A DNA stretch of 53,017 nucleotides from an uncultured Candidatus Saccharibacteria bacterium (GCA_964584545.1 CAZPAG010000002.1:1-53017); one strand, 5' to 3'; shown: positions 23,713-27,050, counted from the first letter of the stretch. Notes: generated by a model from the letters alone, not told the origin. A program made the numbers and translations.

Positions 23713-24027
23713 TTACAGTTTTAACTCTTCGAGATCTTCTCCTTGAGAAACTCTTGCTCTCGGGGCTCTTCCGCCTTCCGGCTCTTCGATCTTCAAATTC
23801 ACGCGAGCGTGATTCTTAAGACCGACGATTCTGACCAAAGATCTTATAGATCTGGCAGTAGAACCGGCTTTGCCGATAATCTGACCCATGTCTTCTGGGT
23901 TTACTTTCAGAGAAAGCAATACTCCCATTTCATCAACCTTGCGGTCGATTTTGACATCTTCAGGATGATCGACAAGAGCTTTTATGATAAACTCAAGGAA
24001 ATCTTGATCGCTGGATGCTTTTGACAT
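23713..24027 (-). CDS. KH-domain RNA-binding protein (YlqC/UPF0109-like)
   Basis: DFLEFIIKALVDHPEDVKI...GQIIGKAGSTARSIRSLV (GxxG KH motif). Confidence 0.85.
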   Translation of the reverse strand: MSKASSDQDFLEFIIKALVDHPEDVKIDRKVDEMGVLLSLKVNPEDMGQIIGKAGSTARSIRSLVRIVGLKNHARVNLKIEEPEGGRAPRARVSQGEDLEELKL

Positions 24028-24131
24028 ATTCTTTCAGTATATATTCATTTCTAGTAGCCCGACCTTTCAGCGACTCTCTCAAACAATAATCAATAATGCG
24101 GGAGAATCTGATAAAGTTGCTACTAATTAAT

Positions 24132-24159
24132 ATTCTATTAATTATTGGGTCTTTGTCAA
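24132..24159 (-). promoter_or_regulatory. sigma70-type promoter candidate for the KH-protein gene
   Basis: Minus sense reads TTGACA - 16 nt - TAGAAT. It is preceded by a long imperfect hairpin at 24164-24225 (CCCAATAAG/CTTATTGGG outer stem, CAAGGAAAAC/GTTTCCTTG inner stem). Confidence 0.45.
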
Positions 24160-24269
24160 GCTGCCCAATAAGCTGCCAAGGAAACAAGGAGAGAGATTTA
24201 TGTTTTCCTTGACAACTTATTGGGTAGGAACGAGGGATCATTAAGTCATAGACTCTCCCCCTCGCTCCT

Positions 24270-24470
24270 TTACTTTTCAGTAAGCTTTTCAAAAGCTTCT
24301 CTGAATACGGACTCATACCAAGGGCGGTAACAAACCAGTATCTGGTCTTCGCCAAGCACTAATTTTGTTGGCTTTACGCCAAGCTCTTTTTCGACTGCGT
24401 CGATGGCTTGGTTCATTTTATCGAAATCCGCCCTTTCTAAAGTAATTACCGCATCTGGTTGGATTCCCAT
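24270..24470 (-). CDS. hypothetical 66-aa protein (island gene)
   Basis: AGGAGG lies 7 nt upstream of the ATG. MGIQPDAVITLERADFDKMNQAIDAVEKELG.... I recognise no family. Confidence 0.55.
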   Translation of the reverse strand: MGIQPDAVITLERADFDKMNQAIDAVEKELGVKPTKLVLGEDQILVCYRPWYESVFREAFEKLTEK

Positions 24471-24630
24471 CCGTTTGCCTCCTTTGGATTCATTCTTTTC
24501 ATGACGCCGAACTGGCTATAATTTATTTGATTAACACTAATACGTCTAATCTACATAAAATAAATGTTTAATTATAACCACTTCGTCGCCATGAAATCCC
24601 ATATTTAATTTTTAAAATTATTAAGTAGAT

Positions 24631-24651
24631 TGTTGAGGCCAGGCCTCAACA
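24631..24651. repeat. island hairpin H1 (TGTTGAGG...CCTCAACA)
   Basis: tgttgaggcc-a-ggcctcaaca. It belongs to the same family as H2 at 25528-25550. Confidence 0.6.
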
Positions 24652-24690
24652 GATCCTCAAAGAATTCTCAAAGAGCCAATTATCCATTTA

Positions 24691-24771
24691 TTAGCTAATA
24701 ACTTTTTTACAAACTAGTAAATGGAAGGTAAGTAAAAATATAATGATACGATCGTTAATTATTGCAATCAT
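24691..24771 (-). CDS. possible 26-aa hydrophobic peptide
   Basis: MIAIINDRIIIFLLTFHLLVCKKVIS. The start codon lies inside the 44-nt loop of a perfect 9-bp stem GAAGGTAAG/CTTACCTTC (24724-24732 / 24776-24784). The call is speculative. Confidence 0.25.
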   Translation of the reverse strand: MIAIINDRIIIFLLTFHLLVCKKVIS

Positions 24772-24801
24772 ATCTCTTACCTTCTTTGAAAGTCTCTATG
24801 C

Positions 24802-24987
24802 CTAGGCCCAGATTAAGGTTTTGACCTGCTTGAGATGCTCGACTGCTTGGTCGAATTGTCCGAGCCGAAAATGATGCCGAGCTTTCTTAAACTCGTCTGA
24901 CAGATAAAAATTTAACTTTTCATCTGCTTTTTCGATCTCTTTTTGAAAAAAATCTTCCAATTTTCTTTCCCTCTCTTCGGTCTTCAT
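24802..24987 (-). CDS. hypothetical 61-aa helical protein (single TPR-like hairpin?)
   Basis: AAGGAGG lies 4 nt upstream of the ATG. ...FKKARHHFRLGQFDQAVEHLKQV. Confidence 0.55.
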   Translation of the reverse strand: MKTEERERKLEDFFQKEIEKADEKLNFYLSDEFKKARHHFRLGQFDQAVEHLKQVKTLIWA

Positions 24988-25002
24988 GATACCTCCTTAA
25001 TT

Positions 25003-25088
25003 TACTCGCTTTTCATAGCGGCGAGATGCCCTCCTGCTGTAGAATGCTACCGAAGGACATTTCGCCGTTATGAAAACTATGAAAAGAA
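25003..25088 (-). repeat. 86-nt structured leader R1
   Basis: 84/86 identical to R2. Minus sense has a 10-bp stem CTTTTCATAG/CTATGAAAAG, an inner stem CGGCGA/TCGCCG and an apical hairpin GTAG-CATT-CTAC. It ends 8 nt before the SD. Confidence 0.8.
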
Positions 25089-25151
25089 TTTCTTTCTACT
25101 TCCACAAATTTCATCCTGAGCTTGTCGAATGGATAAAACCTCTGGAAGTAT

Positions 25152-25173
25152 GGGAAGTCGAAACCGACTTCCC
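25152..25173 (-). terminator. hairpin after the zinc-ribbon gene
   Basis: GGGAAGTCG-GTTT-CGACTTCCC (9 bp). No clear U-run follows. Confidence 0.4.
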
Positions 25174-25193
25174 CTCGAGTAGTGAGGAGGTGG

Positions 25194-25391
25194 CTACTGT
25201 TCAGGGCAACCCTGCCGATTACCGCAGTTACCGCAGAACTTGGCACCGATAGGGATTTCTACCCTACAGGCCTCGCATTCCTTGGTGCCGTACAACGGCT
25301 TTCCACATGTTCGACACGTAACCCTATTCTCGTGGTTAAAAGTCCCGCAGGCGACGCATTGGACAAACTTATCTGGCTTAATTTCAGGCAT
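25194..25391 (-). CDS. double zinc-ribbon protein (65 aa)
   Basis: Four CxxC pairs: CVAC..CRTC..CEAC..CGNC. AAGGAGG lies 8 nt upstream of ATG 25391. Confidence 0.65.
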   Translation of the reverse strand: MPEIKPDKFVQCVACGTFNHENRVTCRTCGKPLYGTKECEACRVEIPIGAKFCGNCGNRQGCPEQ

Positions 25392-25411
25392 GAACAATGC
25401 CTCCTTGCTAA

Positions 25412-25497
25412 TACTCGCTTTTCATAGCGGCGAGATGCCCTCCTGATGTAGAATACTACCGAAGGACATTTCGCCGTTATGAAAACTATGAAAAGAA
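25412..25497 (-). repeat. 86-nt structured leader R2
   Basis: See R1. The two differences fall in the apical loop and in an unpaired segment. Confidence 0.8.
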
Positions 25498-25527
25498 CTT
25501 TTTTACGCCTTAATTTATAAATATAGC

Positions 25528-25550
25528 TTGTTGAGGTCAATCCTCAACAA
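25528..25550. repeat. island hairpin H2
   Basis: TTGTTGAGG-tcaat-CCTCAACAA. Confidence 0.6.
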
Positions 25551-25687
25551 ATCTACAACGAATCTATTACTCTTATAAACTAAGGAGTAAAGGAGATGGA
25601 TGAATGCGTAGATTTTATTTCCACCCATCTCCTATAATGGACGAGATTTTTATAGCGGTGCTCATCCCACCGCTTCTCCCGAGGGTT

Positions 25688-25816
25688 TTAATTATCTTCT
25701 GGAGATTTTTTCCCCGCATCTTCTGCTGACTGACATACGGTGCCAGTTACCCCAGGGCAGAAGACCGGATTGGATCTTCGCCAGAAAACTGGCAGAACCT
25801 CTTTAAAATTTTCCAT
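25688..25816 (-). CDS. hypothetical 42-aa Cys-containing peptide
   Basis: GAGGAGG lies 8 nt upstream of ATG 25816. MENFKEVLPVFWRRSNPVFCPGVTGTVCQSAEDAGKKSPEDN. The longer ORF-track start is rejected. Confidence 0.45.
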   Translation of the reverse strand: MENFKEVLPVFWRRSNPVFCPGVTGTVCQSAEDAGKKSPEDN

Positions 25817-25991
25817 CTTATTTACCTCCTCAGAGACGATAGCACTCTCTGGTCTCTGAGAAGGTAAAATATTACTTAAAGAACTTTTTGAATTTCCCAT
25901 CTTTCAGCTCACAATCTCTTATGAGCTGGAATATAGGGGGAAGAGTCAAACTTCTCCCCGTTATGCTCCCGGTTTTACCCGGGAACCTGAT

Positions 25992-26099
25992 TTAGATGAT
26001 AGTGATGATACCCATCACGATAAGCATTGACGCAGTGAACATGATTCCAGTGACTGCCAGTCCAAACGCGCAGAATCCCGTGATAAGATTGTTTTTCAT
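25992..26099 (-). CDS. possible 35-aa hydrophobic membrane peptide
   Basis: MKNNLITGFCAFGLAVTGIMFTASMLIVMGIITII. GGGAG lies 4 nt upstream of the ATG. It sits at the end of a roughly 145-nt structured leader from a near-consensus promoter. Confidence 0.4.
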   Translation of the reverse strand: MKNNLITGFCAFGLAVTGIMFTASMLIVMGIITII

Positions 26100-26140
26100 T
26101 AAACTCCCTCTTTTTAATAAAATGTGCTTATATAAAGCCG

Positions 26141-26169
26141 AAAAGGCAACTCCCTTGGAGAGAGTTGCC
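26141..26169 (-). terminator. attenuator-like terminator hairpin inside the leader
   Basis: Minus sense reads GGCAACTCTC-TCCAA-GGGAGTTGCC followed by TTTTCGGCTTT. Confidence 0.5.
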
Positions 26170-26187
26170 TAACGGCATATATTTCTT

Positions 26188-26231
26188 GAAAATATCGATA
26201 TCTTCTCTCCTGTTAAAATATCGACATTTTC
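26188..26231. promoter_or_regulatory. two 18-bp near-palindromic operator-like sites
   Basis: GAAAATATCGATATCTTC (26188-26205) and TAAAATATCGACATTTTC (26214-26231). They share 15/18 positions, their centres are 26 bp apart, and they lie downstream of the -10 element. Confidence 0.5.
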
Positions 26232-26251
26232 TCTCTCTCCTCTATGCCCGT

Positions 26252-26279
26252 ATTATAGCATATATCAAAGATTTGTCAA
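26252..26279 (-). promoter_or_regulatory. near-consensus sigma70 promoter with extended -10
   Basis: Minus sense reads TTGACA - 16 nt (ending in TGC) - TATAAT. Confidence 0.6.
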
Positions 26280-26292
26280 GTATTTAGAACAT

Positions 26293-26323
26293 AAAAACGA
26301 AATCCCGCGGTTTTAGCGCGAAA
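26293..26323 (-). terminator. terminator candidate after rpsP
   Basis: Minus sense reads TTTCGCG-CTAAAAC-CGCGGGA, then TTTCGTTTTT. Confidence 0.45.
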
Positions 26324-26348
26324 TCCATAAAACGAGATCTAATTTGGC

Positions 26349-26777
26349 CTATTTCGGTTCTTCAGCCTTAACCTCTTCGCTTTTTACCTCCTCTGCCGGC
26401 TTTGCTTCCTCGGGAGTCGCTTCAATTTTTACCTCTTCTTCCGGTTTTTCCTCTACAGGCTTAGCTGCCACCGGAGCTGCTTCAACCGGCTTTGCTTCTG
26501 CTTTCTTCTTTGATTTCTTTTGTTTTGGTATCTTTTTCCCCTCAACTATTTTCTCTGAAACCAATAAATTAAAAACCGTGGGAGAAGGTTTAGCTCCAAC
26601 TGACATCCAGTATTTAATTCTGTCCTGCTTCAAAACCTTTTCTTTTGTGGTGGGATTCCAAAAACCAACCTCTTCCGTAAAGCGGCCCGCTCTTGTCGGA
26701 TTTCTTTTATCAGCAACAACTATTTTGAAAGAAGGCTGATTTGTTTTACCTACGCGAAAAAATCTGATTACTAACAT
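26349..26777 (-). CDS. rpsP: ribosomal protein S16 with Lys/Glu/Ala/Pro-rich C-terminal tail
   Basis: MLVIRFFRVGKTNQPSFKIVVADKRNPTRAGRFTEEVGFWNP. Confidence 0.95.
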   Translation of the reverse strand: MLVIRFFRVGKTNQPSFKIVVADKRNPTRAGRFTEEVGFWNPTTKEKVLKQDRIKYWMSVGAKPSPTVFNLLVSEKIVEGKKIPKQKKSKKKAEAKPVEAAPVAAKPVEEKPEEEVKIEATPEEAKPAEEVKSEEVKAEEPK

Positions 26778-27050
26778 GCGAATGTAATGAGCACCCCGCC
26801 CTCTAAGCTATAATTCTTTTCTTGAGGGCACGCCAGGCGCTCCCATAATATTTTAATTTTCTTTCTCTCGACCTTGCTAATTTCTCTAAGGAATAAGATT
26901 CGTAATAAACTATTTGAAATTTATTCTTAGATTTATGTTGTTTTATTCTTTTTACTAAGTCTTTGGTGCATCCAATATAAAATTCATTATTCCTTTCCAG
27001 TTTTAAAATGTAGACATAATACATAGCTGCATAGAGGGCGGGGGTTTTCG
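26778..27050 (-). mobile_element. family-2 element, full-length copy: GIY-YIG ORF framed by inverted repeats
   Basis: Arms gcaccccgccctctaagc (26791-26808) and gcatagagggcggggg (27029-44). The same flanks occur in the 73-nt copy at 23578-23650. Confidence 0.7.
26803..27024 (-). CDS. GIY-YIG nuclease family protein (73 aa)
   Basis: MYYVYILKLERNNEFYIGCTKDLVKRIKQH...RERKLK carries the GIY / YIG / R..H / E pattern. The start is moved to ATG 27024. The TAG stop lies inside the inverted repeat. Confidence 0.8.
   Translation of the reverse strand: MYYVYILKLERNNEFYIGCTKDLVKRIKQHKSKNKFQIVYYESYSLEKLARSRERKLKYYGSAWRALKKRIIA

Follow-up and report, generated by a model that had tools for sequence, protein, structure and literature searches.

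Directly behind rpsP, the window analysed here (a stretch of 53,017 nucleotides from an uncultured Candidatus Saccharibacteria bacterium) contains a consensus promoter, twin palindromes and a terminator hairpin in front of a 35-aa hydrophobic ORF, which raises the question of what such an arrangement controls. An earlier note on this DNA had proposed that a strong promoter is gated by two operator-like sites and by a leader terminator in order to keep a tiny toxic membrane peptide silent. The elements on which this proposal was built are all present on the minus strand (Table 1), including the extended -10 TG of the promoter, the TCCAA loop of the terminator and the GGGAG-TTTA-ATG start of the ORF. 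Comparison with related genomes leads to another account of what they do. As judged from aligned sequences, the promoter, the palindromes and the terminator would be parts of one leader RNA that is conserved in a single order of CPR/Patescibacteria and was previously undescribed.

Table 1. Features of the leader locus and its downstream segment (window coordinates unless a contig is named)
Feature	Position	Strand	Details and basis
rpsP terminator-like site	26300..26326	minus	10-bp stem, then CGTTTTTATG
Promoter TTGACA-16 nt-TGcTATAAT	26252..26279	minus	-35 TTGACA at 26279-26274, -10 at 26257-26252; 12/12 consensus match, extended -10 TG
P1 5' strand GGCATA	26243..26248	minus	Pairs with TATGCC at 26174-26179; MFE fold
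GA tract GAGGAGAGAGAG	26231..26242	minus	Core GGAGAGAG at 26240-26233; columns 84-94% conserved; nascent folds
Twin palindromes (insert P2)	26188..26231	minus	18-nt near-palindromes at 26214-26231 and 26188-26205 (+14 to +57); fold, tandem duplication, unalignable or absent in homologs
AU-rich spacer and P1 3' strand	26174..26187	minus	AAGAAATA-TATGCC; family consensus UUUUAAUAAU-NUGAC; alignment, column statistics
Intrinsic terminator (predicted)	26134..26169	minus	5' arm GGCAACTCTC at 26169-26160; loop TCCAA; 3' arm GGGAGTTGCC at 26154-26145; tail TTTTCGGCTTT at 26144-26134; CU tract CTCTCTCC at 26164-26157; terminator scan, family covariation
Window-specific insert	25950..26133	minus	35-aa ORF and hairpins 25983-25968 and 25959-25937; alignment
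35-aa hydrophobic orphan ORF MKNNLITGFCAFGLAVTGIMFTASMLIVMGIITII	25992..26099	minus	SD GAGGGAG at 26110-26104, TTTA, ATG
Second shared element	25894..25929	minus	Hairpin CCAGCTCA..TGAGCTG, then AAAGATGGGAA; alignment with G007 and L066
Leader copies in genome G088	L113 1018-1126; L113 3118-3223; L114 1030-1137

The promoter is the sole perfect one detected by a consensus scan of positions 23900-26800. Because rpsP, which ends at 26349, has its own terminator just upstream of it, the leader element is an independent transcription unit. The notion of a strong promoter followed by a gating leader terminator is supported. The promoter is kept in 29 of 32 aligned family members; the remaining three (L100, L091 and L105) have retained the leader RNA and lack the promoter at the aligned position, and conservation therefore acts at the RNA level. 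A second promoter of the type CTTGACAAAT...TAGAAT was observed elsewhere in the window's genome (G000:C5:17353-17461, L107, minus strand), where it drives an ORF-free, hairpin-rich stretch of about 200 nt ending in a T-run that may be an unannotated ncRNA. Since this promoter has the same form, TTGACAAAT is the general strong-promoter form of the lineage. On the other side of the boundary, the C-terminal tail of RpsP (26375-26448) is a Lys/Glu/Pro-rich extension with a 45-nt imperfect tandem repeat, and long RpsP tails of a similar kind are also found in relatives.

The family was delineated from the locus outwards. A DNA search in relatives identified a syntenic element directly after rpsP in genome G038, and pattern scans added G007 and two metagenome contigs. 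Scans of genome and metagenome collections with exact patterns brought no more than four additional close members. All of them display the same promoter, 5' GGCATAGAGGAGAGAG, spacer and terminator at the same place after rpsP, together with the AU-rich block TTTTAATAWTATGAC and a CTCTC...GAGAG terminator. A loose search with GGCATAGAGGAGAGAG (2 mismatches, 401 genomes) returned mostly noise, the reversed control being comparable, and a covariance model was used instead. At E<=0.01 (covariance-model E-values are rough), this model, R1, built on the window, G038, G007 and the two metagenome contigs, matched 87 of the 401 genomes, all of them sampled from the window's order, and about 30 of its matches scored 40-125 bits. 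A second model, R2, built on 33 matches, gave outside the order a match in 1 of about 285 genomes from other orders of the class. The window's own genome carries a single copy of the leader; the low-GC relative G088 carries five, two of them 2.1 kb apart. A search of the whole window against Rfam 15 recognized only tRNAs at gathering score, and the region 25990-26280 gave no match even at E<=10. In the same way, a limited literature search returned no description of this leader.

The leader element is 80-115 nt long. Its family layout consists of the consensus promoter, a 5' GGAGAGAG, a variable insert, the AU-rich UUUUAAUAAU-NUGAC and a terminator with CUCUCUC in its 5' arm. The consensus can be written in six parts: TTGACAAAT, N and TATGNTATAAT; about 6 nt; RGYRU(N)AAGAGGAGAGAGU; a variable insert of 0-80 nt; AUUUUAAUAAU-NUGAC(S)CC; and finally ACAGGCGGCUCUCUC, a loop and GAGAGCCGCCUGUU(N3)UU. 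The best-conserved columns are those of the GA tract, of UUUUAAUA (69-94%) and of C-UCUCUC (91-100%).

The genomic context of the leader is conserved on one side and variable on the other. Using the window's proteins in tblastn, 21 of the 32 aligned copies were placed between nusB-rnc-rpsP, which they directly follow, and the KH-protein and trmD genes. Four copies (L094, L097, L099 and L103) follow a gene that we take, from its translation, to be mnmA, and the gene after the island in L097 and L099 is presumably alaS on the same grounds; one copy follows a presumed map and one a presumed rplU, both names being read from translation. Behind every copy, small ORFs follow on the leader's strand in a set that varies between loci. 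The distance from the terminator to the start of an SD-led same-strand ORF is 26-36 nt in 11 of the 32 (36 nt in the window); this leaves no room for a promoter of its own, and read-through is therefore needed. The cargo genes belong to small orphan families that are shuffled between loci and reappear in differing combinations: 25-aa MAYYVVNG... peptides, MEYNSTDKYGCTHFGKTPEE-type peptides, zinc-ribbon proteins ending in FHxTPRLH, ...ARWLAIxRRD... proteins and 117-121-aa KFxLWTLSNSF proteins. Islands at the mnmA slot share some cargo families with the rpsP slot. Apart from the zinc ribbons, the cargo had no match in Pfam and PHROG, and the relatives of the one family tested in this respect, family D, are only annotated as 'hypothetical'. 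No phage DNA match to the locus was found either, and a phage or mobile origin was rejected on these grounds.

Other structured elements were observed within the window's island. Two 93-nt leaders, 96% identical to each other (25003-25095 and 25412-25504, minus strand), lie directly upstream of unrelated genes, one encoding 61 aa (24802-24987) and the other a 67-aa double zinc ribbon (25194-25397). Their best Rfam match was SSRC34 at chance level (E 0.96), and they look like a second, different type of leader within the same island. This module is bracketed by repeated hairpins TTGTTGAGG..CCTCAACA with shared flanks (24630-24651 and 25529-25550) that are probably reused terminators. At the far end, an inverted repeat with 24-nt arms (24161-24227, minus strand) is followed by an 11/12 promoter (24159-24132) ahead of the KH-protein gene. 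A similar sequence to 24132-24227 occurs at the island end in L066, and the far end of the island is thus conserved too.

Support for the terminator comes from covariation. In its lower stem, both sides have changed at all 9 of 9 pairs, with 94% of the cells paired; none of 500 shuffles reached the score, in a control that ignores phylogeny. RNAalifold recovered the same stem from an independent MAFFT alignment. In the upper stem (CUCUC/GAGAG) it is the sequence itself that is conserved, as expected if CUCUC is also paired with the upstream GGAGAGAG and must consequently stay fixed. The U-tract is interrupted in many members (UGUUGGUUU type).

The complementarity between the 5' GA tract and the CU tract of the terminator is a second shared property. 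When predicted transcripts were cut before the 3' arm of the terminator, 5 of 5 founder sequences paired the GA tract with the CU tract CUCUCUCC. The duplex amounts to -11 to -25 kcal/mol in 32 of 32 aligned members. GA tracts pair better with their own partner (mean -17.3 kcal/mol) than with swapped ones (-15.7 +/- 0.34), 0 of 5000 permutations being as low, although this permutation control ignores relatedness. In the alignment 92.5% of the cells are paired, and column-wise covariation is not significant because the core columns of the pairing are nearly invariant. The register of the pairing varies where it extends into the flanks and the terminator loop, and there the two strands co-vary. 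For instance, both strands are changed in L095 (GAGAGGGUC with GGCCCUCC, or in a longer form UUGAGAGGGUCA with GGCCCUCCAAC), in L103 (AGAAGAGAGA with UCUCUCUUCU), in L099 (UCAGAGAGAG with CUCUCUCUGA) and in L096 (AAGGAGAGAG with CUCUUUCCUU). In G088 (L113 1018-1126 and L114), the CU tract is located in the terminator loop and has no GAGAG 3' partner, and the upstream GA tract is kept.

A further helix, P1, joins the 5' end to NUGAC(C)CC, through GGCAUA and UAUGCC in the window. Double changes occur at 6 of 6 of its pairs in alignment A3, an alignment fitted to the covariance model. RNAalifold on the independent alignment called the terminator alone and not P1, and many members have a 5' domain with almost no structure. 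For these reasons P1 is likely present in the rpsP-linked subgroup and not universal, and a universal P1 acting as anti-antiterminator was discarded on the RNAalifold result. The strands follow each other in the order P1 5' strand, GA tract, P1 3' strand and CU tract, with linkers of 2 nt and about 9 nt, an order that would permit an H-type pseudoknot according to the modelled pairings.

The leader is probably a terminator/antiterminator attenuator acting in cis. According to this model, the constitutive near-perfect promoter would start a transcript of about 110 nt, in which the 5' GA tract GGAGAGAG would form an antiterminator by pairing with CUCUCUCC, the CU tract located in the terminator's 5' arm and loop, so that transcription could continue into the small genes behind it. 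Withholding of the GA tract, either through P1/P1b pairing with the AU-rich spacer or through a bound factor, would let the GC-rich terminator hairpin form and end the transcript. We infer that this alternative GA:CU pairing controls termination. More speculatively, if a factor contacts the leader or a pause occurs in it, the conserved, structurally idle UUUUAAUAAU block would be the best candidate site. A broader and less probable version of the model sees the leader as a portable 'expression port' that combines a promoter with a signal-responsive RNA switch, possibly an H-type pseudoknot of the GA tract with the CU tract of the terminator. The order would retain this port at fixed housekeeping slots (rpsP-khpA, apparently mnmA-alaS, and others) and insert rapidly exchanged cassettes of orphan small proteins behind it. 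If this were true, the whole accessory micro-proteome would answer to one signal.

Several candidates for the sensing step were considered. A leader peptide or a leaderless ORF was rejected: behind the SD-like tract no start codon is common to the members, minimal members lack one ahead of UAAUAA, and the frames opened from NUG of NUGAC shift by non-multiples of 3 between members. Hfq (PF17209) and CsrA (PF02599) were dismissed as binders of the GA tract, both genes being absent from the window's 100%-complete genome in searches whose positive controls were found. Finally, the mnmA-linked subgroup (L094, L099 and L103) has lost the SD-like GG and kept the complementarity to the terminator, which makes ribosome binding (30S/anti-SD) unlikely as the general sensor.

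The competing model of the earlier note, in which a repressor bound to two 18-bp operators would cooperate with the terminator to silence a toxic 35-aa membrane peptide, is highly improbable. It has in its favour that the palindromes are real, that they lie at +14 to +57 and that the ORF combines a good SD with a plausible single transmembrane peptide. Yet the palindromes are missing from 31 of 31 other aligned leaders, which have unrelated hairpins or nothing at that position. The window's palindromes occupy exactly the variable slot between the GA tract and the AU block, a segment that differs entirely between homologs and where each has its own short hairpin (TCAGC/GCTGA, CATCGG/CCGATG, etc.). 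The search for the palindrome elsewhere in the genome that had been suggested as a check covered 654 kb with <=2 mismatches and returned just the two local copies and control-level noise. DNA operators were thus rejected, being neither conserved in orthologous promoters nor repeated at other genomic sites. In addition, the centres of the two palindromes are 26 bp apart and out of helical phase. A duplication accounts for them: a 21-nt direct repeat, 90% identical and with 26-nt spacing, is found at 26189-26209 and 26215-26235, and the sequence identifies the palindromes as the apparent product of a local, lineage-specific 26-nt tandem duplication inside the variable part of the leader. In the RNA fold both palindromes pair together in one 17-bp hairpin (arms 26231-26215 and 26204-26188) that holds a second GA tract (26210-26201) in its loop, and the MFE of the 126-nt transcript is -46.2 kcal/mol, dinucleotide-shuffled versions giving -24.2 +/- 3.2 (z = -6.8) and none of the 200 being as good. 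As modelled, the palindromes are the two arms of one RNA hairpin and not DNA operators. No DNA-binding domain was detected among the island proteins either, Pfam giving zinc-ribbon and weak TPR matches only and no HTH/RHH, in a search that small novel binders could escape.

The toxic-peptide part of the same model is not supported either. No homolog of the 35-aa ORF turned up in 60 relatives, Pfam gave no match for it, and among 1.84 billion representative proteins it only returned two low-complexity matches, in proteins of more than 800 aa. The ORF sits in an inserted segment: between the terminator and the next shared element the window has about 185 extra nt that are missing in its two closest syntenic loci, G007 and metagenome contig L066, in which about 25 nt separate the terminator from that second shared element, CCAGCTCATAA..TTGTGRGCTGAAAGATGGGAA. 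The leader is accordingly conserved in relatives and the 35-aa frame is not, an outcome that the earlier note itself had set against a peptide gene. An ATG inside the element at 25894-25929 opens non-homologous or 3-codon frames, and for this reason the element is probably a further RNA element and not a start codon. A consensus scan gave no plus-strand promoter-like site over 25900-26110, the nearest one (26156-26183, 9/12) pointing away from the ORF, so that no antisense promoter over the ORF is seen. Because of its good SD the ORF may well be expressed. It is this genome's private first cargo gene, an orphan passenger and not the leader's reason to exist.

Two other explanations concern the leader itself. 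It is unlikely that the transcript is a trans-acting stand-alone sRNA of about 90-115 nt whose GA and CU tracts are target seeds, e.g. SD or anti-SD-like, and whose downstream genes are unrelated to it. Its own strong promoter and stable terminator, its strongly structured fold with conserved RNA blocks and the distance of more than 150 nt to the next ORF in some loci would suit such an sRNA, and it is general knowledge that terminated riboswitch leaders can act in trans; on the other hand, the SD-led ORFs that closely follow 11 of the 32 copies leave no space for a further promoter, the GA and CU tracts are mutually complementary and co-varying as a cis switch predicts, and the window's genome is without Hfq. 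The sRNA and attenuator readings are compatible with each other. An unregulated module, in which a leaky terminator would set a fixed low read-through or insulate rpsP and the GA:CU pairing would serve stability or folding, appears quite improbable. Three-way conservation involves the GA tract, the CU tract and the terminator 3' arm, and UUUUAAUAAU is conserved without a structural role, a constraint that exceeds what a passive terminator needs, even though no effector, aptamer-like core or leader peptide was identified in the leader and the 5' domain is weak in many members.

Among known terminator/antiterminator attenuators, the pyrG leader of B. subtilis would be the closest in design to the attenuator proposed here. 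In this leader, reportedly described by Meng, Turnbough and Switzer in 2004, the terminator has a pyrimidine-rich 5' arm with which a 5' purine tract base-pairs. Both systems have a short leader with a 5'-proximal purine run complementary to a CU-rich upstream terminator arm, and in both the downstream genes need read-through. On the contrary, the purine tract of pyrG arises by CTP-sensitive reiterative transcription, whereas here it is templated and located some 8-10 nt from the start; the two leaders are not homologous in sequence, and a metabolic gene lies behind pyrG where the window family has variable orphan cargo. The fluoride crcB and ZTP pfl motifs are pseudoknot-type 'ON' riboswitch expression platforms. 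The strand order of the window's leader would permit a comparable H-type pseudoknot with the terminator 5' arm as its 3' strand, but this leader has no Rfam match at E<=10 and no recognized ligand-pocket-like core, its P1 is weakly supported in the family, and the regulated genes give no metabolite hint.

The ribosome-mediated leader-peptide attenuators trpL, pheL and bmrB similarly combine a promoter, a short leader, alternative hairpins and a terminator; unlike them, the window family has no conserved leader ORF or consistent start codon. In the lambda pR'-tR' ('6S RNA') unit, Q antitermination overrides a short terminated transcript. This unit resembles the present one by its constitutive strong promoter, by a short terminated transcript unless overridden and by the late or cargo genes behind it, and differs in that no Q-like gene or phage context is seen here and that the putative RNA-RNA antiterminator is encoded in the leader itself. 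Finally, the type I toxin-antitoxin loci hok/sok, fst and tisB, of the class invoked in the earlier note, also place a small hydrophobic ORF behind a structured 5' leader. In the present locus no antisense RNA or promoter is seen, and conservation concerns not the ORF but the leader, which in relatives heads unrelated soluble proteins.

CPR/Patescibacteria account for a large share of bacterial diversity and, to our knowledge, almost nothing is known about their gene regulation. The tempting 'repressed toxin' annotation of this locus is unsupported and has been removed. In its place, the leader would be a lineage-wide RNA switch outside Rfam, governing the most variable part of these tiny genomes, namely the islands of orphan micro-proteins of unknown function at conserved slots. 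It would allow the islands of about 90 species to be annotated as one regulon-like system, and its short length would provide a handle on the signal and the factor that control the island genes.
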